NCBI GenBank assembly: GCA_023269235.1 | Contig: JAHFTW010000002.1 | Location: forward strand, 6,067-70,066 | DNA length: 64,000 bases | Direction of reading: 5' to 3' | Source of the DNA: Thermoplasmata archaeon | GTDB lineage: Archaea > Thermoplasmatota > E2 > JACPAO01 > JAHFTW01 | Part shown: piece by piece, positions 21,064-64,000 of the stretch | Layout of the letters: the number at the start of each line of letters is the position of its first letter | Numbering within the stretch: the stretch's first letter is position 1 | Translations under genes and position numbers: made by a program | Notes under the pieces: generated by a model | What the model was told of the DNA's origin: nothing | The model's database searches: none | What the model saw: only the letters and a program-made list of their open reading frames with translations

Positions 21064-21882
21064 TTAGAACGCCGCCGACAATGGTGCGGGCCCTGCCCGT
21101 TTCGGGCGTGCCGCCGAAGGCCTCGAGTTTGGGCAGAGGATGCCGAGCTTGCGCAGGTCGCGCAGGCTCGCGCGCACCGCCTTGGCCGTGAACTTGGAGG
21201 CGAGCTTCGCCACGACGGCGTCGTCGCCGAGGCGCCCTGTCGCGGCCTTGAACAGCGCGATGGCGACGGGCTCGAGCTTGTAGACCTCGATGTCGTCCTC
21301 TTCGCGGGCGAGGACGGTCGGGAAATTGCCCCTGGGCGCCGCGAGCGTGTCGCCATGCAGCAGCTCCTCCGGGTCGTGGCGGAGCGCGAGGAGAGCCATG
21401 CCGGACGCGCGTTTCACGGTCTTGGACTTCGCCGGCTTCGCGTACGCCTTGTCCATGAGGAGCATGCCGCCGGCCTCGATGGCGACGAGGTCGGCGACCG
21501 GTGCTGGAAGGGTGCCCTTCTTCGCGGCCGCGAGGGCCCAGGCGCGGAACTGACGCACTTCGTCGCGCGGGTCCTCGAACGCGTACGGCTTGTCCGCGAA
21601 GTAGGTGGCCGCGAGCCCGACGGCGTGGTCCACGGCGGCGACGGAGCGCGGCAGGTCGCCGCTCAGGTAGCTGAAGCGGTCGATGACGCGGCGGCTCGCG
21701 AAGTAGGCGGCCCCTTCTGGCGGGAGGCCGGCGAGTAGGGCCGCGGTGTCGCCCGTGAGGCCAAAACGGCGCGCGTACGCCTTCGGGTCGTTCTGGAACG
21801 CCTCCAGGCGGCCGGGCTCCATCAGGAGGGCCGCGAGCGCGGACTGAAGTTTCGCGAGCTGGCTGGAACCGGCAGCAACCAT
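21064..21882 (-). CDS. MNIO partner protein (DUF2063/HvfC/BufC-like)
   Basis: Directly downstream of DUF692; N-terminal LAKLQSALAALL, central E..QF..W and DLVAIE patterns, C-terminal winged-helix-like L.DL..LGIL. Confidence 0.65.
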   Translation of the reverse strand: MVAAGSSQLAKLQSALAALLMEPGRLEAFQNDPKAYARRFGLTGDTAALLAGLPPEGAAYFASRRVIDRFSYLSGDLPRSVAAVDHAVGLAATYFADKPYAFEDPRDEVRQFRAWALAAAKKGTLPAPVADLVAIEAGGMLLMDKAYAKPAKSKTVKRASGMALLALRHDPEELLHGDTLAAPRGNFPTVLAREEDDIEVYKLEPVAIALFKAATGRLGDDAVVAKLASKFTAKAVRASLRDLRKLGILCPNSRPSAARPKRAGPAPLSAAF

Positions 21883-21883
21883 C

Positions 21884-22723
21884 TTAGGCCCCTGCCGCGC
21901 CCTGCATTAGCCTGTCGGCTTTGCGCACTTCGGCCTCGAGGCGCTTGAGGCTGCCGAACGTCTGGTCGCGCTCGATGAGAAGAGCGCGCACATGGCTCGC
22001 GTCAATGACCTGCTTGGTGAGCTTCCAGACGTCGGGGTGGACGGCGGCGCCGTGGGTGTCGAGCAGCTTGCCCGCGACCCACTCGGAGCCCGCGAGGTGG
22101 AACTGGACCAACCGATTCAGGGGGAACTCGGCGAGGTAGCGCTGCGGGTCCCAGCCCAGGTTGGCCGCGTTGTTGCGGAGGTTCGTGACGTCGAGGAGCA
22201 CACCGCAGCCGGTCTTGGCGGCGACCTCGGCCATGAAGGCGGGCTCGCTCAGGGTGTTGCCGGGGAACTGGAAGTACTGGCTGATGTTCTCGATGAGGAA
22301 CGGGACGCCGACGGCCTTCTGCACGATCTTGACGTTCGCGACGACGGCGGCGAGCGAGGCGTCCGTGTATGGGATGGGTGTGAGCTGGCCGATGCGCTGG
22401 CCGCCGATCTTGGTGAAGCAGAGGTGGTCGCTGCACCACGGCACTTTGTAGCGGCGGTTGACGCGCGCCATCTTGGGGAGGAAGCGACCGTCGGGGCCGG
22501 TGGCGGTGCCGATGCTCAGGCTGATGCTGTGCGTCACGACGGGGCGGTTCGCAGTGTCCTCGGCCAGTTCGGCTTGGGACTGCGCGCTGGCGTCGAAGAT
22601 GTGCTCCGGCATCAGCTCCAGGAAGCCGAGCGGGAGCCCCGGCTGGTCGTAGAAGGAGCGGATGGCGCGGCGGTAGCCGAGGCCGGCTCCAAGAAAGGGA
22701 AGGGAAGAGGGAGAGAGGGGCAT
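21884..22723 (-). CDS. DUF692 family multinuclear non-heme iron oxidative enzyme (MNIO)
   Basis: GLGYR, ELMPEH, HSISLSIG, SDHLCF, ENI, LLDVTN, HLAG, DTHG and IERD motifs; AGGAG SD upstream. Confidence 0.92.
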   Translation of the reverse strand: MPLSPSSLPFLGAGLGYRRAIRSFYDQPGLPLGFLELMPEHIFDASAQSQAELAEDTANRPVVTHSISLSIGTATGPDGRFLPKMARVNRRYKVPWCSDHLCFTKIGGQRIGQLTPIPYTDASLAAVVANVKIVQKAVGVPFLIENISQYFQFPGNTLSEPAFMAEVAAKTGCGVLLDVTNLRNNAANLGWDPQRYLAEFPLNRLVQFHLAGSEWVAGKLLDTHGAAVHPDVWKLTKQVIDASHVRALLIERDQTFGSLKRLEAEVRKADRLMQGAAGA

Positions 22724-22745
22724 TGTTCTCCTGAAGGAGAGGGCC

Positions 22746-22964
22746 TTACTTGGCCTTCTTGGCGGGGGGCGCCGGGGCCGCGGGGGCCTTGGCGCTGCCA
22801 CAGCTCTTCGCGGAGCCGCAGGACTTGTCGCCACCCTTCATGCTGCCGCAGGACTTCGCCGAGCCGCAGCTCTTGGCGTCGCCCTTGGCCGAACCGCAGC
22901 TCTTCTCGGAGCCGCAGGACTTGTCGTCTGCCTTCTTCTTTTTGCCGATACCAAAGAGTCCCAT
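22746..22964 (-). CDS. Cys-repeat RiPP precursor peptide (72 aa, six KSCGS motifs)
   Basis: MGLFGIGKKKKA followed by DDKSCGSEKSCGSAKG, DAKSCGSAKSCGSMKG, GDKSCGSAKSCGSAKA and PAAPAPPAKKAK; ends 22 nt before the DUF692 gene. Confidence 0.85.
   Translation of the reverse strand: MGLFGIGKKKKADDKSCGSEKSCGSAKGDAKSCGSAKSCGSMKGGDKSCGSAKSCGSAKAPAAPAPPAKKAK
22785..22928 (-). repeat. three imperfect 48-bp tandem repeats in the precursor gene
   Basis: Recurring GCCGCAG(C/G) units encoding three 16-aa repeats. Confidence 0.8.
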
Positions 22965-23236
22965 TGTGGTCACATCCGTGTAGTCGGCCCGTTTCCGAGG
23001 AAGCAGGCCGGCAGAACGTTCGTCTGCAATGAAACGAAGTCGGGGGGGTATGAAAGGCTTGAGGCGTGGGAGCGGATTCCGTAGGCTATTTTCTCCTGTC
23101 GAATGGCCAGAAAGGCACAAGTTGCGGCGAATTTCGTGCCGTGCCGGCCAGTCCATTGGGCTTTACCATGCAATCGGCGGCCGAGGGGCGACGGGCGTCC
23201 CCAAACCCTTCATGGAACCCCCCCTTCGGCGACGCG

Positions 23237-37685: not shown

Positions 37686-37720
37686 CTTTTGCGAGGGGTC
37701 GCGAAGCGACCCCTCAAAAG
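37686..37720 (-). terminator. stem-loop directly downstream of tRNA-Leu
   Basis: GAGGGGTCGC-GAA-GCGACCCCTC perfect 10-bp inverted repeat flanked by T4/A4. Confidence 0.55.
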
Positions 37721-37804
37721 TGCGGGAGATCGGATTTGAACCGATGAACCACGAAGGACTAGCACCTCAAGCTAGCGCCGTTGGCCAAGCTTGGCAACTC
37801 CCGC
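37721..37804 (-). tRNA. tRNA-Leu(GAG)
   Basis: Cloverleaf GCGGGAG/CTCCCGC, anticodon arm CTAGC-TTGAGGT-GCTAG, long variable arm, TTCAAATC; CCA not encoded. Confidence 0.93.
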
Positions 37805-37843
37805 GGGGGCGAATGGGGGAAAAGGTGCCGGGGGACCGGCCAG

Positions 37844-37927
37844 CGCGAGGAGAGAGATTTGAACTCTCATGCCCAAGAGGGCACGGCCTTAGCAGGGCCG
37901 CGCAATACCAGGTTATGCGATCCCCGC
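37844..37927 (-). tRNA. tRNA-Ser(GCT)
   Basis: GCGGGGA/TCCTCGC acceptor, CGGCC-CTGCTAA-GGCCG anticodon arm, long variable arm, G discriminator; TTAAAT box about 30 nt upstream. Confidence 0.93.
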
Positions 37928-57778: not shown

Positions 57779-58028
57779 CGCACTTGGCGTCGCGGCAAAC
57801 CGGAAGCTGGCCCGTGCGCCGACGAAGGCCGGGTTTACCGCACCTTGTAGTGAGTGTCGGCGCCGTTGCTGACAATTCGCCTACAACACGGTCACTGATG
57901 GTCGCTTGCCCGGGTCCTTGTTAGGGGCAAGAACTACCGAACCACGTGGAAGGTAAATGGCTGATGCCGTACAGACTATGCAAGTAGCGATGCTGCAATT
58001 TCGACGCCGTTTCCATTGTCTTAGCCAG

Positions 58029-58934
58029 TCACCTCGGCTGGACGTTGATCTTGAAATTTGCGCCATTGGAAGCCGGAAACCAGTTTTTTTCCATTAGCTT
58101 GCGCTGCACAAATTCGCTGGAGGCTTTGGGTGTGAAGCCGGGCTTGGCCCTGCCGCATACCACGACGTAGGCGGGACCATTCCATTGTGCAAACAAACGC
58201 ACCATGGCAAGCACCGTGGTGTCGTTGATCTTGAGCTGAACATGGTGGACCATCCCCGCTGGGACTGGGGGACTTTCTTCGGGCGTGAGGCTTCCGACCC
58301 ATTGGCCAATATCGTTGGAAATGCCGAGCAAGGCAGGTACAATGGGCGATTCCAACACGTTTTCTGCGCCGTATTGTGCGCAAGCGAAAGCATACCCAAC
58401 TTTTCCAATCAAGCGGAGCCAGTCTGAGGGGACAACCTGCAGTTCTCCTTTAATTTCCGTTGCGCCGTGCTGTTTAACCAGTTTTTCGGCGGCGCTTGTG
58501 TCAAGCAGCGCTGTCGAGACGCCGATGATTCTCACCTGTTCGGGATTTGCATCAGGAATGCCAATCCCTGCCGGTCCAATTTCCGGGAACGAAATTACAA
58601 CTGGTATATCGTTCATGTTGCCGGTCACGTCTTTCGTGGACCCGTCTGCAAAGCCCAGAGTGATCGTATGGCTCGGTGGCTGCGTTTTTGGCGTCCGACT
58701 TGGTGCCTCAAGCTTGTCTCTCATTGGCCCCAAGAACCGTTTCAGGATGCGGCTTTCGAACGGTTTGAACTTGTCCTGACAAACACGACAGGTGGCTTTG
58801 CGATATACCCACGGGCCAGCGATAGAGTATGGGACAACGTGTTCGTCTGTGAGCTCTTGTTTACTGCCGCAGAAAATGCAGATTGAAGATCGCCCCATTT
58901 CGACCGGTTCCATGCCCGGTGCATATTTGCCCAT
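58029..58934 (-). CDS. HNH endonuclease domain protein
   Basis: CIFCG....LTDEHVVP..I.G.......C..C; start uncertain. Confidence 0.75.
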   Translation of the reverse strand: MGKYAPGMEPVEMGRSSICIFCGSKQELTDEHVVPYSIAGPWVYRKATCRVCQDKFKPFESRILKRFLGPMRDKLEAPSRTPKTQPPSHTITLGFADGSTKDVTGNMNDIPVVISFPEIGPAGIGIPDANPEQVRIIGVSTALLDTSAAEKLVKQHGATEIKGELQVVPSDWLRLIGKVGYAFACAQYGAENVLESPIVPALLGISNDIGQWVGSLTPEESPPVPAGMVHHVQLKINDTTVLAMVRLFAQWNGPAYVVVCGRAKPGFTPKASSEFVQRKLMEKNWFPASNGANFKINVQPR

Positions 58935-59147
58935 GTCTCCAACAATTGCAGAGGGGAGATGGTCTTTGGGGCTAGTTTGGCCTAAAGATGCTGCCGCGGC
59001 TGCAAATTTCCATCCGAGAAAGGCGGTCCCCCGACTTCGGAACTCTAAATCCTGGATTCCAGCCACCGCGCGGTTGGTATTCCCCTTGGCTTAGCCAATG
59101 CCCATGTCTCGGACAGGCGCCAAGGCCAGTCTCAGAGGTCGATCCGG

Positions 59148-60059
59148 ATGACTTCCTCCTTTGCGGTTAGCAACAAGGACCATGAGAAGGTCGTCGCCCA
59201 ATGGGAGCTCGAGTACCGGATCCCGGAATCAAAGGGGAGCTCCGTGCTGTCGGCCCAAGCTCAATTCTCCCAGATTTGTAGTGCCTTGAAGGGAATTGTC
59301 AGCCCCGGCAAAACTGCGGTTCCCTTCTCACGTGTCCGCACGGTTCAGGGAGGCGTGCTGCTGCACGGGCCTCCCGGCTGCGGAAAGACCCATTTGGTTC
59401 AGGCCGCCGCTGGCGAACTTGGTCTGCCGCTGTTCGTTGCGCAACCAGCGCACGCAGTGGGAGTCTACTTCGGTGAGACCGGACGTGCATTGACATCCCT
59501 GTTTGAAGCTGGGCAGCGGGTCGCTGCCAAAGGGAAGGGGGCCGTTCTTTTCTTAGACGAGCTGGAAGCGTACGGCCGCAGGAGCGCGAATCCAGATGCC
59601 ATCGCGTACAACATGATGATGGCGAACGTGCTCAAACTCATCGACTTAGCCTCGGCTGCCGAAGGAGGCAATCGATTGGCCATCGTGGGTGCCACGAACA
59701 TGCCGGATGCCTGCGATCCCGCCCTGCTCAGCCGGATGTCAACCCGTCTCGAAATCCCAATTCCGGATTCAATCTCGCGTCGGGCCTTCTTTGAAGGCAA
59801 CATCGCGGACGCCCGCGCTGCGGGGTTCGACATCGACCCGCAAAATCGAATGGAAGCCCTCGTGTCCGCGACTGATGGCTTGAGCACGCGCGCCCTGAGT
59901 CAACTCTTGGACGCCGTGAACGCTCTGGTCCTGTCGGGCGACGGCGCCGCCTCGCTGGGACGCATGGACCTGCTGGACGCGCTAACCATTGTCGTAGAAG
60001 CAAAGGGATCGACTGAAGCGGATCGCCGATTGCGGGAAGGGTTTGGGGGTTACACCTAG
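59148..60059 (+). CDS. single-module classical-clade AAA+ ATPase
   Basis: Walker A GPPGCGKT, pore loop YFG, Walker B LFLDE, SRH ATN....DPALLSR; C-terminus GFGGYT. Confidence 0.88.
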   Translation: MTSSFAVSNKDHEKVVAQWELEYRIPESKGSSVLSAQAQFSQICSALKGIVSPGKTAVPFSRVRTVQGGVLLHGPPGCGKTHLVQAAAGELGLPLFVAQPAHAVGVYFGETGRALTSLFEAGQRVAAKGKGAVLFLDELEAYGRRSANPDAIAYNMMMANVLKLIDLASAAEGGNRLAIVGATNMPDACDPALLSRMSTRLEIPIPDSISRRAFFEGNIADARAAGFDIDPQNRMEALVSATDGLSTRALSQLLDAVNALVLSGDGAASLGRMDLLDALTIVVEAKGSTEADRRLREGFGGYT

Positions 60060-60967
60060 TGTTGCTTCACCGCTTCCCCGACTTCCAACCTCTCCAATTG
60101 CACCATCGAGCCGACGTCGAACTAGCGCTTTCACGCACGAGCGCGTATCTGCCGCCATCTGATTTCCATCCCACCTCGCTCCTGGTGTGGGGAGGAAGCG
60201 CAGCCGGAATCGCGAAGCTCGAGCATGGAATCGTGGTCCGACTCCCCGCCTATATACACGGCCGATCAGATGTTCTCACTTGGTTGGCACCCCACACAAG
60301 CCACGATGAACTTGATGCTCTGACGAAATTTGCTGTCACGGAGGGTTTGTCACTGGAGTTGCTCCCGGAAGCTACCGCTGCCGGTCTGCCTGCCAAAACC
60401 GTCGTGCTTCTGGACACTCCAGGTCACTCCGATTACATTTACGAGACGACGGAGACCGCAACTCTCGTAGGCAATGAATGGCGCAAGAAACGGCGTGATC
60501 TCGAACGGTTCATCGGCGGTGCTGGCCGCAGCGCGCGCACCGGGTTGATGGATCTCGCCAATCCAAAACACCGAAATGAATGTCGCCAACTTTTTGTGGA
60601 GTGGATGTCCCACAAAGGGGGAAAAGCCGCCAACGCCAATGAGTGGCAAGCCTTCGAACGGTTTTCACAAATCGCATACAGCCTGAATCTAACTACGATT
60701 GGCGTATGGCTCAATGGGGCACTCAGTGCATTCTCCATTGGGGAATCCTTCGGTCCAAGCGGAGCCACGTTCCACTTCGAGAAAGCCATGCCCGGAGTAG
60801 CCGGCCTAACCACGCATCTCCGAACCACCCTTTGCCGCGAGCTGGCAAAGAATGGAGCAGACTGGATCAACGGTCAACAAGACCTTGGCGTTCCAGGCCT
60901 CAAGCACTCAAAGCGCTCATGGCAGCCCACGACAATGCTGCAGAAATTTTCCCTGCCGAACCACTAG
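60059..60967 (+). CDS. DUF2156 / phosphatidylglycerol lysyltransferase-like (tandem GNAT) protein
   Basis: SDF...L.VW, DYIY....A.L.G.....KR, HFEKA...V.G, IN..QDLG.PGLK.SK.SW.P. Confidence 0.8.
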   Translation: MLLHRFPDFQPLQLHHRADVELALSRTSAYLPPSDFHPTSLLVWGGSAAGIAKLEHGIVVRLPAYIHGRSDVLTWLAPHTSHDELDALTKFAVTEGLSLELLPEATAAGLPAKTVVLLDTPGHSDYIYETTETATLVGNEWRKKRRDLERFIGGAGRSARTGLMDLANPKHRNECRQLFVEWMSHKGGKAANANEWQAFERFSQIAYSLNLTTIGVWLNGALSAFSIGESFGPSGATFHFEKAMPGVAGLTTHLRTTLCRELAKNGADWINGQQDLGVPGLKHSKRSWQPTTMLQKFSLPNH

Positions 60968-61107
60968 CGGTTAGTCGGCTGCGCGGAAAAGGTTGAAATT
61001 ACTCAAAGTGCCCTCAGACCAGAAAAACACGGAATTTTTCTGCCATTAGAGTGGCGTCTTACAAATTCGTCGACTGGTGCCGTGCTCGTTTTGACCTTTC
61101 GCATACT

Positions 61108-61545
61108 TCAGGGAATTTCGTGATTATTGAGTTTCGCCGCCAGAGATTCTGTAGTTTCCCAGCCTTGTGGTGCCTTCCTACCGTGGGCCTTGTTCCGATG
61201 GCACTGCAACAGCACGGCTTGCTCGAGTTGCAGATTTGGATCGAGCTTCGGATCCAGGAGGTCGTGCGCTTGATACTGGTGAATATCATTCAGGTTGAGT
61301 TGCACGCACTGGACCAAATCTTCCTCCGAGAAGTCAGTTGGCTCCACTGCGCGTTGGGCTTGAACCACGACGAAAAGCAGATTCTCGTTTTCCTTGTGGC
61401 GCACGATTGAACCGGGGGCGAACGACGGCCGAACATTCGTCTTCGAGGCCGGGGTGGCGGGCGAAGGCGTAACAGAATGGCGAGCTTCTTTGGGCAAGGC
61501 TTTGGAGGGCCGCCGGACGGGGATCTTCTTTGTTATTTCAGGCAT
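61108..61545 (-). CDS. hypothetical protein
   Basis: 145-aa ORF, AGAGAAAAGG upstream; F.PG.IVRHK is SH3-like. Confidence 0.5.
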   Translation of the reverse strand: MPEITKKIPVRRPSKALPKEARHSVTPSPATPASKTNVRPSFAPGSIVRHKENENLLFVVVQAQRAVEPTDFSEEDLVQCVQLNLNDIHQYQAHDLLDPKLDPNLQLEQAVLLQCHRNKAHGRKAPQGWETTESLAAKLNNHEIP

Positions 61546-61604
61546 TTCTATGGCCTTTCTCTTGGCAGTCGATTTCTGTCCTCGCTTGGCCGAGGGTTTC
61601 GCCG

Positions 61605-61772
61605 TCAGTCGTCGTAGAGTTTGTCCCGGAAGTCAGCCTCTGCCTCTTCCTTCGTCTTGCCGAACCCCTTGACGAGGTTGCCTTCCTCATCCTTGCCTCG
61701 GGCCACGTAGTAGTCGTGGCCGAAACCGAAGGCTCCGTTCTCCATGCGGATTGATGGGCGAGTTGGGCTCAT
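61605..61772 (-). CDS. small HicB-like protein
   Basis: 55 aa with Y.A......V.G.GKTKEEA motif; GGAG SD. Confidence 0.45.
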   Translation of the reverse strand: MSPTRPSIRMENGAFGFGHDYYVARGKDEEGNLVKGFGKTKEEAEADFRDKLYDD

Positions 61773-61930
61773 GTCATGCTCCAGACAGCATGAATGCATT
61801 CGCAGCATTCAGGATTTCGGCAACTGCAATGCCAGATAACTTCCCGGTAGCGAGATTGGGCCCTCTGGGCGGGACCCAATTGGTCGTTGGGCGCAAGAAA
61901 TGAGTTGAGCCCATCTCTAGCATTCAGTCC

Positions 61931-64000
61931 TTATTGCATCAATTGACGAATCGCTTGATTAGCAAGAAGAATTTCCACGAGTTGCGGCAATTCTTTTTCC
62001 TTTTTCATTGCGAGGCTAACAAGCTGTGCCGAGAGAACCTTATCGCCGCCCTTGGCAGCGAGTACCGCATGCACAAGCATGAGGCCGGGGCTGCACGTCA
62101 GAAGAAGGTCGTTGGCTGGAAGCGCCGGGAGCTTTTGCGCAAATTCCTGCTCAGCTCCAACAAGGATGCTCGCGGCCACGAGTTCAGTCCGCCACCCAAC
62201 AGTGTCCCGCCCCGGTTCTTCGCCCATTTTTTCAATCAATTCTCGAGCGCCCCTCAGAAGCTCCAATGCCGGGGGTAGCAGTTTGGGCGACTGCCCGATT
62301 GCCACGGCAAGAAGCATATCGGCCCCCGGATGCAACGGCGCGTTCTGGTCTGTAGCGTGCTTTTTGCCTTCGGTAACGACGCGGTCCGCACTAACAGGGT
62401 CGCCAACCCGAAGGAGGAAAGCCGCATACTTCGAGCGATATCCAAATGGATTTCCTGCAATTACATCCCCGGCCTTGATCGCATTGCGGAAAGCTGCATC
62501 CGCCTTGAGCCGCATGTGGCCCAACACAATTGAGGTCGAATTGGGAGGCGCTCTCAAGAAACCCGGGGCCACAAATTCGGAGTATGCGTTTGCGTAGGCG
62601 CTATGGAAACGAGTTTCGTTGATTTCCCTGCGACGGGCGTCGTTTGCAAAACAGTGTTGCAAACCGGCAATCGCTTCTTGCGGCCTTCCTCTAAGCGTAA
62701 GGAAGTTTGCAAACTCGACCGCAGTCCCGCCCAGCATCGACGCATGGACTGTCCCGAACTCCAAGCCCTTGCCACCCGGCCAGGCGCTACCCAAGATTTG
62801 CCGGAATAAAGGCTCGGCTTCCGTGGTTCCCGCCAAGTCCCCTCGCTTGGCGAGGGCCTGCGCTAGTCTACGGGCGTTTGCTGCGGTTCGTTGGTTTTGA
62901 AAGGTCTGTCTTATTTCGTCAATAGCTTCGGTTCCCCGAACGAATTGCGCCTTGAATAACTTCAATTTATGTTTGATGGCGGGACTTTCTGGATTGGCAA
63001 CTATAGCCTCGTCAAGGCGGTCAGATGCCTCTTTTTTTCGACCGCGTTCCTGAAGGTGATGAACATGCTGTTCCCACAGGGATTGCGCGGAAGGATGGTC
63101 TTTTAGCCAGGTGTATACGGCTTTCAACACCCCGTTTTTCTGTTCGGCTGATATGGCCAATTTGTCATGGCGACCAAGACTCCAGCCTGCCCATGCAATC
63201 CAGGTCTGCTCCCCCATGTCATCTTGGTTCCGCGTGGTCCAGTCGTTGACCGTCGTGAAGACCTTGCTTGCAAGGTTGAGCAGCGTACTGCGTTCGGCAA
63301 GCTTCAGAGTTGCAACGACCTCCGGCCCGCCTCCATCGTCTTTTTCGAGTCTTTTCAAGAATGCTTCAAGGACCCGCCGTTGATCCGATTCAAGCGGGAG
63401 TACGTCCACGGCGACCTGCCATGCCCCATATGGCAAGCGATAGATGTTGTCTTGCAGGAATGATACCCAGGTTCGGCGATGCCGCAAGCTCGCCTGCATC
63501 GTAGGCTTCGGCTGTCCGTCCTTGTTGGTGTCGCTACAGCATTCGTGGAGCAAAACCGCTGTGGTGCCATCGAGCCCCTCGCTGTTCGCAAGCTCCAAGA
63601 GTTCTGCAAAGGCCTGATCCACATCGTCCTGCACACGTTCGCGTCTCGCGTAATTCAAAATCGCGCTTAGCACAGCTCGATCGTCTGGATGACTGTATAG
63701 CCAGGCCTTTGCGGCGTTTTTGGCAATCGACTTCTCATGGTCTGACCCTTCTCGGCCGTGCGCGGCTTTCAACTGGAGCAAAACATCTTCTGTTGTCTTT
63801 GGAGTCGTTAGCACTATGCGGAGCACCAACTCCTTCGGCGATGCCTCGACGGGAACGGCCGAAGGTGCCATGGCCGCAATCGCACTCGGCGTAATTTGGG
63901 CAACCTCCACTTCCCTCAATTTTATTCGTGATTTCTGCACTTGTTCAGCAGGCAACTCCATCTCAATTCCCTGAAGAACATCTTTCGCCAGTTTACCATG
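61931..64000 (-). CDS. large alpha-helical/TPR-like protein; 5' end outside the window
   Basis: Frame stays open from ATG 63961 to position 64000; TPR-like A..L...G...EA segments. Confidence 0.65.
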   Translation of the reverse strand, partial: HGKLAKDVLQGIEMELPAEQVQKSRIKLREVEVAQITPSAIAAMAPSAVPVEASPKELVLRIVLTTPKTTEDVLLQLKAAHGREGSDHEKSIAKNAAKAWLYSHPDDRAVLSAILNYARRERVQDDVDQAFAELLELANSEGLDGTTAVLLHECCSDTNKDGQPKPTMQASLRHRRTWVSFLQDNIYRLPYGAWQVAVDVLPLESDQRRVLEAFLKRLEKDDGGGPEVVATLKLAERSTLLNLASKVFTTVNDWTTRNQDDMGEQTWIAWAGWSLGRHDKLAISAEQKNGVLKAVYTWLKDHPSAQSLWEQHVHHLQERGRKKEASDRLDEAIVANPESPAIKHKLKLFKAQFVRGTEAIDEIRQTFQNQRTAANARRLAQALAKRGDLAGTTEAEPLFRQILGSAWPGGKGLEFGTVHASMLGGTAVEFANFLTLRGRPQEAIAGLQHCFANDARRREINETRFHSAYANAYSEFVAPGFLRAPPNSTSIVLGHMRLKADAAFRNAIKAGDVIAGNPFGYRSKYAAFLLRVGDPVSADRVVTEGKKHATDQNAPLHPGADMLLAVAIGQSPKLLPPALELLRGARELIEKMGEEPGRDTVGWRTELVAASILVGAEQEFAQKLPALPANDLLLTCSPGLMLVHAVLAAKGGDKVLSAQLVSLAMKKEKELPQLVEILLANQAIRQLMQ

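Follow-up and report, generated by a model that had tools for sequence, protein, structure and literature searches.

An archaeal MNIO/PME-type 2 gene cassette with a KSC-repeat precursor peptide, probably a cousin of bacterial copper-binding thiooxazole systems

RESULTS

A three-gene cassette built around a KSCGS-repeat peptide

We analyzed a 64,000-nt stretch of a Thermoplasmata archaeon genome (contig JAHFTW010000002.1, here contig C9, positions 6067–70066; hereafter the window) and found on its minus strand, at 21064–22964, three genes for a precursor peptide, an enzyme of the MNIO (DUF692) family and a partner protein. We conclude that this is a real, conserved archaeal MNIO/PME-type 2 (PME2) cassette. 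It resembles the systems for bacterial copper-binding thiooxazole peptides, of which it looks to be a cousin in Archaea that probably works intracellularly. The first-pass annotation of this DNA had placed three tightly packed, co-oriented genes here, and the open reading frame (ORF) listing and the sequence confirmed them in the order precursor, MNIO, partner, with 22 nt between precursor and MNIO and 1 nt between MNIO and partner. The same arrangement recurs in 13 distinct loci, far beyond what chance would give; the flanking genes vary between relatives, indicating that the conserved unit is the three genes themselves.

The precursor gene (22746–22964), kept in all 13 loci, encodes 72 residues plus a stop codon. 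Residues 1–14, MGLFGIGKKKKADD (22923–22964), form a leader that we propose, from a comparison of 13 precursor leaders, as the recognition sequence. The core (residues 15–57, 22794–22922) holds, by codon table and motif counts, six KSCGS motifs, arranged as three 16-residue units (xxKSCGSxKSCGSxKx), and comparison of precursors delimits a basic Ala/Pro/Lys tail (residues 58–72, AKAPAAPAPPAKKAK, 22749–22793) ending in APAAPAPPAKKAK. The earlier description of a 72-residue peptide with three 16-residue repeats and six KSCGS motifs was thus borne out by translation and by Tandem Repeats Finder (48-nt period, 2.8 copies, 74% matches, 22794–22926). All six Cys fall within KSCGS motifs. Across these motifs Ser is encoded by TCC or TCG as well as by AGC, and because the two codon types cannot be interconverted by a single substitution, the repeat must have been maintained at the protein level. 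EGKCG is absent from the whole peptide, in agreement with the claim that its core motif differs from that of HvfA. By inspection the peptide carries no Sec signal: the leader lacks a hydrophobic core, the longest uncharged run before the first motif being five residues (LFGIG), followed by KKKK. Searches of Pfam and NCBIfam returned no family for the peptide, DUF2282, BufA2 and TIGR04222 included.

Related precursors were compared with duplicates counted once (the L111 precursor is that of L021, and L004–L008 are loci L014–L017 and L019); counts from the metagenome scan, which used MNIO alignments, are lower bounds. An MNIO search of 61 related genomes gave 11 matches, five of them same-genus orthologues with 58–84% identity, and a similar small ORF lies upstream in 5/5. 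In a collection of named genomes the eight best loci (47–84% identity) are all of archaeal type and have the small ORF in every case, and the following 72 loci are bacterial with MNIO identities of at most 40%. Among the metagenome matches listed, the five closest loci all carry it as well, so that its conservation beside orthologous DUF692 genes, which bore on the first-pass proposal, is upheld.

At least 13 distinct precursors, 41–154 residues long, remained after deduplication. All 13 leaders are short and Lys-rich, with MG[LIF][FLIM] at the start (MAIF in one case) and KKK within about 12 residues; the fuller form is MG[LIF][FLIM]...[FW]G.KKK. Their cores contain 3–15 copies of [KMQ][ST]C[GSA][ST], in the forms KSCGS, MSCGS, KSCSS, KSCST and KTCST, and their basic tails of 6–44 residues nearly always terminate in Lys. 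Cys number equals motif number in 11 of the 13 precursors, and the other two have one near-motif Cys each. The paired 16-residue repeat of the window peptide is not general among the precursors; the element shared by the family is the 5-mer, which persists at MNIO identities of 45–84% and in DNA of 63–75% GC. No NCBIfam model scored above its cut-off in the three precursors searched (the window peptide, L014 and L021). Judged by these sequence features, the KSC-repeat precursors are a new precursor family, small and lacking a Pfam or NCBIfam model, and hence invisible to standard annotation.

The MNIO enzyme has intact ligand motifs

The MNIO gene (21884–22723) encodes 279 residues plus a stop codon. 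We placed its start at ATG 22723, not at GTG 22834 of the longest ORF, because orthologues begin at the same MxxLSPSSLPF and AGGAGA lies upstream of this ATG. The product matches PF05114 (MbnB_TglH_ChrH) with an E value of 2.2e-77 and 260.3 bits (cut-off 25) over positions 1–262 of the 263-position model. Its ligand residues (H65, S98-D99-H100, E145-N146, D178, N181, H209, D222-T223-H224 and E251) are invariant in 20/20 homologues of 43–100% identity and in 9/9 KSC-type MNIOs, as expected from the annotated DUF692 enzyme with intact iron-ligand motifs. On the family model and the metal-ligand columns, it is a member of the MNIO superfamily.

The nearest chain in the PDB is 3BWW (E 3.8e-30), a close HvfB homologue, and TglH is second. 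N181, D222 and H224 align with 3BWW positions equivalent to N175, D242 and H244 of HvfB, which are described as essential, their replacement abolishing thiooxazole formation. The NCBIfam models rank in the order BufB (218.8 bits), HvfB (182.5), ApyH (127.4), MbnB (42.9) and ChrH (36). Position 41 is His in the KSC and TIGR04222-linked clades and Asn in the PME1 clades. Gadgil et al. (2026) reported that the catalytic Asp is followed by Phe in MNIOs with Lys-Cys substrates and by Asp where the substrates are Cys-Lys; we tried this rule as a substrate predictor and discarded it, since Gln occupies the position in the KSC clade (8/9) and in the SCK clade and allows no prediction.

A partner remotely related to DUF2063/NGO1945_C proteins

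The partner gene (21064–21882) encodes 272 residues plus a stop codon, is kept in 8/8 archaeal loci and overlaps or abuts the MNIO gene in all of them. Its product matched no Pfam family at E ≤ 0.1, PF09836 and PF22106 included; NCBIfam gave a weak match to ApyI (E 7.9e-6, 25.3 bits, cut-off 200) and none of the MbnC type, and a profile search of the PDB returned only a marginal hit to LigA (E 0.26). Residues 4–253 of its ESM Atlas model (pTM 0.71) align, at TM scores of 0.67–0.73, to clusters with PF09836 (DUF2063) plus PF22106 (NGO1945_C). In hhalign, a profile of 14 archaeal partners matched 28 bacterial PME1 partners (95.7% probability, E 9.3e-9, 231 columns, both domains); these 28 come from SCK and DUF2282 loci, and 4/4 tested were Pfam DUF2063-positive. 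The label "DUF2063-like" given to the partner at first pass therefore stands as a remote homology, by hhalign and the Atlas structure.

Searched against 1.84 billion representative proteins, the partner profile found 430 at E ≤ 1e-3 and 23 at E ≤ 1e-30; many of the weaker matches are proteins of ∼190–210 residues and cover the N-terminal domain only. Two of eight relatives searched against Pfam score as PqqD/RRE (P0164, E 1.9e-5; P0166, E 0.0028), one of these matches lying inside the region aligned to the partner's C-terminal domain and the other at the C-terminal end of its protein. According to Antoine et al. (2025), PME-type 2 partners lack a Pfam DUF2063 match yet are related to NGO1945 (DUF2063 plus RRE), and signal-less precursors accompany them. 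The window shows each of these traits: the partner gene directly follows the MNIO gene, its product is related to NGO1945 with no Pfam DUF2063 match, and the precursor is signal-less. On profile and model comparison, the partner is a PME-type 2 protein and a remote DUF2063/NGO1945_C (RRE-type) relative, with a DUF2063-like N-terminal and an RRE-like C-terminal domain.

As a side observation, the relative P0164 (697 residues) is a GT1/GT4 glycosyltransferase fused to a partner-like domain (415–685) whose end scores as PqqD/RRE, which hints that glycosylating systems for peptides of ribosomal origin that are modified after translation (RiPPs) reuse this recognition module.

The KSC-type MNIOs form one clade

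For 87 MNIOs we built a quick maximum-likelihood tree (LG+G4, SH-aLRT only, unrooted), which omits the metagenome loci and L107 with its 153-residue partial MNIO. Nine KSC-type MNIOs form a single clade (SH-aLRT 100, stem length 0.76). The groups on its side of the tree are a second archaeal MNIO type, Sericytochromatia, Methylocystis and a large Pyrinomonadaceae group; the opposite side holds the Melainabacteria GKE[GS]SCK systems and DUF2282 bufferin-like loci. The branches joining the KSC clade to the TIGR04222/PME2 side are weakly supported (SH-aLRT 84). The proteins encoded upstream of the MNIO in L026 (Pyrinomonadaceae) and L023 (Cyanobacteria) belong to the TIGR04222 membrane proteins and bear Cys/Ser/Gly tails (80.9 and 84.2 bits; E 1e-22 and 9.9e-24), and the NCBIfam search for which they served as positive controls found no TIGR04222 domain in the window peptide or two relatives. 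PF05114 is rare in the phylum (14/401 sampled genomes). This distribution fits an acquisition of the MNIO from bacteria, a direction that we infer from an unrooted tree.

Two further archaeal-side or metagenomic groups were noted in passing. The second archaeal MNIO type (loci L009, L098–L101 and L104; genomes G001, G156, G012, G017, G025 and G011) is 36–39% identical, forms its own clade, has Ala or Ser, not His, at position 41 and is accompanied by its own partner, starting ...LLTD..Y..RFF...GL..EEF; no Cys-rich small ORF lies upstream. On metagenome contigs L113 and L114, MNIOs 42–45% identical to the window enzyme stand behind ORFs of ∼80–150 residues that end in alternating Cys strings (..SCACVCVCACIISAA and ..SCACACLCACGI), apparently a different precursor type not described before.

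The cassette belongs to an archaeon

The host of the cassette is an archaeon. Its genome (1.96 Mb, 26 contigs, 92.6% complete, 0.34% contamination) encodes the TATA-binding protein (TBP), which among control genomes was detected only in the four archaeal ones. Contig C9, from which the window was taken, bears an archaeal small-subunit (SSU) rRNA (1453 bits, full model) ∼206 kb from the cassette, together with one tRNA and the start of an archaeal large-subunit (LSU) rRNA. The first-pass proposal had hung on the contig being neither bacterial nor chimeric, and the rRNAs, TBP and low contamination speak for that. The GC content of the locus (0.67–0.69) is that of its surroundings. Orthologous cassettes of the same genus lie in public Thermoplasmatota/Thermoplasmata metagenome-assembled genomes (MAGs), two of which their submitters call Halobacteriales and one "bacterium", and other Thermoplasmatota MAGs have the cassette on contigs of 340, 187 and 449 kb. 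A contig of 9,448 nt in an independent format, which may derive from the source sample, spans the whole locus with 0 differences. From one metatranscriptome run belonging to the same study, 0 contigs mapped to the locus, a result that carries no weight either way.

Comparison with known MNIO systems

Oxazolin (HvfABC) and fontiphorin (FonABC) of Pseudomonadota share with the window cassette the precursor-MNIO-partner order and Lys-rich peptides with repeated five-residue Cys motifs and a small residue after Cys; oxazolin-type repeats have 17 residues with two motifs, those of the window 16 with two. Unlike oxazolin and the EGKCG captophorins, the window peptide has no Sec signal, carries K-S-C-G-S instead of E-G-K-C-G and belongs to an archaeal host, its partner is of the PME2 and not the PME1 type, no DoxX gene lies nearby, and its MNIO sits on the other side of the tree. 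Against the definition of captophorins as MNIO-PME1 products (Gadgil et al. 2026), the window differs in partner type, in precursor group and in the BufB/HvfB equivalog; its Cys is flanked by Ser and Gly, with Lys at −2.

The TIGR04222 MNIO/PME2 systems (Antoine et al. 2025) occupy the nearest, weakly supported, tree branch and have a signal-less substrate, a partner without Pfam DUF2063 and H41; like the window peptide, the substrate region is Ser/Gly-rich with SCGS/SCSS-like strings. However, their substrates are membrane proteins of 300–350 residues, whereas KSC precursors are free soluble peptides of 41–154 residues with a leader of their own and regular repeats, and their partners are often short (∼130–190 residues), whereas that of the window extends over both domains at full length. 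Bufferins (BufA1/DUF2282, BufA2, BufBC), for which copper buffering has been proposed, share a Cys-targeting MNIO and a two-domain partner, and BufB is the best NCBIfam model for the window MNIO; they differ in being Sec-exported and periplasmic with PME1 partners, and the window peptide matches neither DUF2282 nor BufA2.

The GKE[GS]SCK precursors of Melainabacteria/Obscuribacterales resemble the window peptide in their short S-C repeats within a Lys-rich chain, with MNIOs 35–40% identical, but have a signal-like hydrophobic N terminus, Pfam-positive DUF2063/NGO1945_C partners (2/2 tested) and a place in a separate clade with the DUF2282 systems. These precursors (L024, L028, L033, L077, L078, L090 and other Obscuribacterales/Melainabacteria loci) carry 2–8 repeats each and probably belong to the published "Cys-Lys" group; those of L028 and L078 gave no NCBIfam model above cut-off.

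The PME2-using aminopyruvatide (ApyHI) and pearlin (TglHI) systems are linked to the window by the weak ApyI match of the partner and by TglH as a PDB relative, with equivalog scores far short. ApyHI and TglHI target an Asp or a Cys at the C terminus; unlike their substrates, the window peptide ends in Lys and its Cys are internal and repeated. Methanobactin (MbnABC) is not matched either, the MbnB score being 42.9 against 325 bits and the partner having no MbnC-type match. By the sequence comparisons made here, the cassette is outside the captophorins, oxazolins, bufferins, TIGR04222 systems, methanobactins and aminopyruvatides. Archaeal MNIO systems are not mentioned in the main text of the MNIO landscape paper, of the captophorin paper or of an archaeal RiPP survey, nor in full-text literature searches, although supplementary tables may list archaeal entries.

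To our knowledge, the MNIO peptide systems characterized so far are all bacterial, and the large thiooxazole families that we know of are Sec-exported and periplasmic.

Copper and oxygen physiology of the host

The genome encodes a heme-copper oxidase (COX1), indicating that O2 is available and copper is needed. In this genome (G000, 92.6% complete) we found no match to the HMA domain (PF00403) or to the P-type ATPase domain (PF00122), which were detected in 13/14 and 14/14 control genomes, respectively. HMA is present in 3/12 other genomes of the host genus as compared with 18/19 in the family's other genera, and seven of the nine cassette-bearing genomes have no HMA match. The relatives are not independent, and we treat the pattern as a lead only.

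Upstream region and surroundings

An alignment of 12 upstream regions revealed a conserved stretch before the peptide gene (22965–23060, minus strand), seen likewise at L014–L020, L109 and L110. On the minus strand of the window it contains a TATA-like box, CCTTTCATAC (23048–23057); a palindrome, GCAGA-N7-TCTGC (23011–23027), ∼25 nt downstream of this box; a candidate hairpin (22986–23009) whose stem sequence differs between loci; and a Shine-Dalgarno-like GGATGTGA (22970–22977), which is of the GGTGA type in relatives. The order TATA-like box, palindrome, hairpin, GGTGA is visible in 10/12 loci, and an alternative palindrome, CGAACGTTCG, occurs in two lineages (L018, L020, L110). We read the region as a putative promoter whose operator would lie where transcription starts, or as a 5′ leader. 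No regulator gene is conserved near the cassette. A palindrome regulon was considered and dropped: the genome holds four GCAGA-N7-TCTGC matches, of which one falls within the 16S gene, and no obvious link is seen for any of them. A sigma-70 promoter and terminator scan, unsuited to archaea, gave 0 promoters and one terminator-like site on the wrong strand.

The eight ORFs flanking the cassette have MFS transporter, GT4 glycosyltransferase, HAD phosphatase, PurT or Cdd1 domains, or no family. None of the eight is DoxX, for which no genome-wide search was made, and no protease or exporter gene was found among them as kept beside the cassette. Elsewhere in the window, GC falls from ∼0.68 to 0.55–0.57 at 58000–64000, where the encoded proteins include an AAA ATPase, one resembling HNH_5 endonucleases and one resembling LPG_synthase_C; this segment may be an acquired island. 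Adjacent tRNA genes for Leu(GAG) and Ser(GCT) lie at 37720–37927 on the minus strand.

DISCUSSION

On balance we favor the view that the three genes form a self-contained archaeal RiPP-type cassette that acts like a thiooxazole metallophore inside the cell, with chemistry, metal and location all putative. The 72-residue peptide would be the substrate; the RRE-like C-terminal domain of the partner would bind its short N terminus (MGLFG..KKKK), and the DUF2063-like N-terminal domain would dock on the MNIO. Each Cys would then be converted to a 5-thiooxazole at a loss of 4 Da, the modification known from oxazolin, bufferins and fontiphorin. The resulting Lys-rich peptide, carrying as many as six soft-metal ligands, could buffer Cu(I) and would be used full-length inside the cell.

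The outcome that we predict as most likely is thiooxazole formation together with copper binding. The best NCBIfam matches of the MNIO are the two thiooxazole-forming equivalogs, well above ApyH, MbnB and ChrH, and what was said at first pass, that HvfBC produces 5-thiooxazoles, is in agreement with the reassignment of the oxazolin heterocycles to this structure in 2026. FonBC is described as preferring a small residue after Cys and failing on charged ones; with Gly, Ser or Ala and then Ser or Thr after Cys, the KSC precursors accord with this preference. Also in favor are the intact ligand columns of the MNIO, the kinship of the partner with DUF2063/NGO1945_C proteins, the near confinement of Cys to the motif, the tight gene order amid varying flanks, the heme-copper oxidase, the scarcity of HMA matches in cassette-bearing genomes and the published pairing of signal-less precursors with PME2 partners. 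Since a signal sequence is missing from the peptide, and the genes kept beside the cassette include none for a protease, an exporter or DoxX, the modified product probably acts intracellularly and at full length.

Several observations weigh against this reading. The MNIO falls below the equivalog cut-offs of BufB (218.8 vs 310 bits) and HvfB (182.5 vs 360 bits), as it does those of ApyH (127.4 vs 400), MbnB (42.9 vs 325) and ChrH, and its clade groups with the uncharacterized TIGR04222/PME2 branch instead of the PME1 clades of known product; thiooxazole is therefore a leading guess and not a transfer by orthology. Ser, not Lys, precedes Cys, and the peptide fits none of the three captophorin precursor groups (DUF2282, Lys-Cys or Cys-Lys; Gadgil et al. 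2026). Among the eight flanking ORFs, no copper or other metal gene adjoins the cassette. The scarcity of HMA is genus-wide: four genomes of genus g1 with no MNIO match have no HMA match either, nor has one whose sole MNIO is of the second type, and G006 and G152 have HMA as well as the cassette. One or two events in evolution, together with incomplete genomes, may lie behind the HMA pattern, several being 65–90% complete.

A possible though less probable explanation keeps the cassette and its substrate and changes the chemistry, with Cys becoming an oxazolone/thioamide as in methanobactin or an undescribed group, and with a role that may lie outside copper buffering, such as in handling other metals, in redox or in attaching to nucleic acid or membrane by way of the basic tail. 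It draws on the separateness of the KSC clade (SH-aLRT 100, stem 0.76), whose nearest MNIOs have no known product, on the missed BufB/HvfB cut-offs, on H41, shared with the TIGR04222-linked clades as opposed to Asn in the PME1 clades, and on the PME2-type partner, whereas all proven thiooxazole systems use PME1; MNIO reactions are, moreover, reported to be highly varied. The closest named models are nevertheless those of thiooxazole formers, repeated short Cys motifs with a small next residue are described as the hallmark of thiooxazole peptides, and similarity to MbnB is weak (42.9 bits).

We consider it improbable that the peptide is an unmodified, metallothionein-like metal binder or no MNIO substrate at all, the enzyme pair acting on another protein. 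The second archaeal MNIO type has no adjoining Cys-rich ORF, so adjacency is not universal; yet peptide, MNIO and partner stand together in 13/13 loci of this MNIO clade while the flanks vary, the gaps between peptide and MNIO genes are only 6–47 nt, and the gene order agrees with the bufABC rule. That the cassette is an artefact, either a chance ORF in GC-rich repeat DNA (such DNA yields spurious ORFs, with 61 ORFs of at least 40 residues overlapping one 7-kb span, and none of 503 candidates in a word-indexed search with the short, biased peptide reached E ≤ 0.01, an uninformative result as it missed the peptide itself) or a product of bacterial or chimeric assembly, is hardly credible and largely refuted by the Ser codon switching, the conserved GGTGA before the ATG in relatives, the persistence of the motif across MNIO identity and GC content, the rRNA on the same contig with local GC like its neighborhood, the identical 9,448-nt contig and the long cassette-bearing contigs of other MAGs.

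We also put forward, as a speculation that is more doubtful than not, a broader scenario. One lineage among the aerobic Thermoplasmatota would have taken up a bacterial MNIO/PME2 pair and evolved a peptide of its own with a leader and KSC repeats, whose product, an intracellular multi-thiooxazole or new-heterocycle copper buffer, would be the main means of Cu(I) handling where CopA/CopZ-type export has been lost. If true, this product would be the first MNIO natural product from Archaea and, among those of the thiooxazole type, the first that is cytoplasmic.

The cassette would extend MNIO peptide systems to Archaea. Its minimal design of three genes, with a leader of very few residues, a core of simple repeats and no signal for export, makes it a convenient study system, useful for asking what PME-type 2 partners recognize, what the TIGR04222/PME2 branch of MNIOs makes and whether thiooxazole peptides can work intracellularly. 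For these uncultured groundwater archaea, a heme-copper oxidase in a genome in which neither HMA nor a P-type ATPase was detected offers a testable hypothesis of copper handling.

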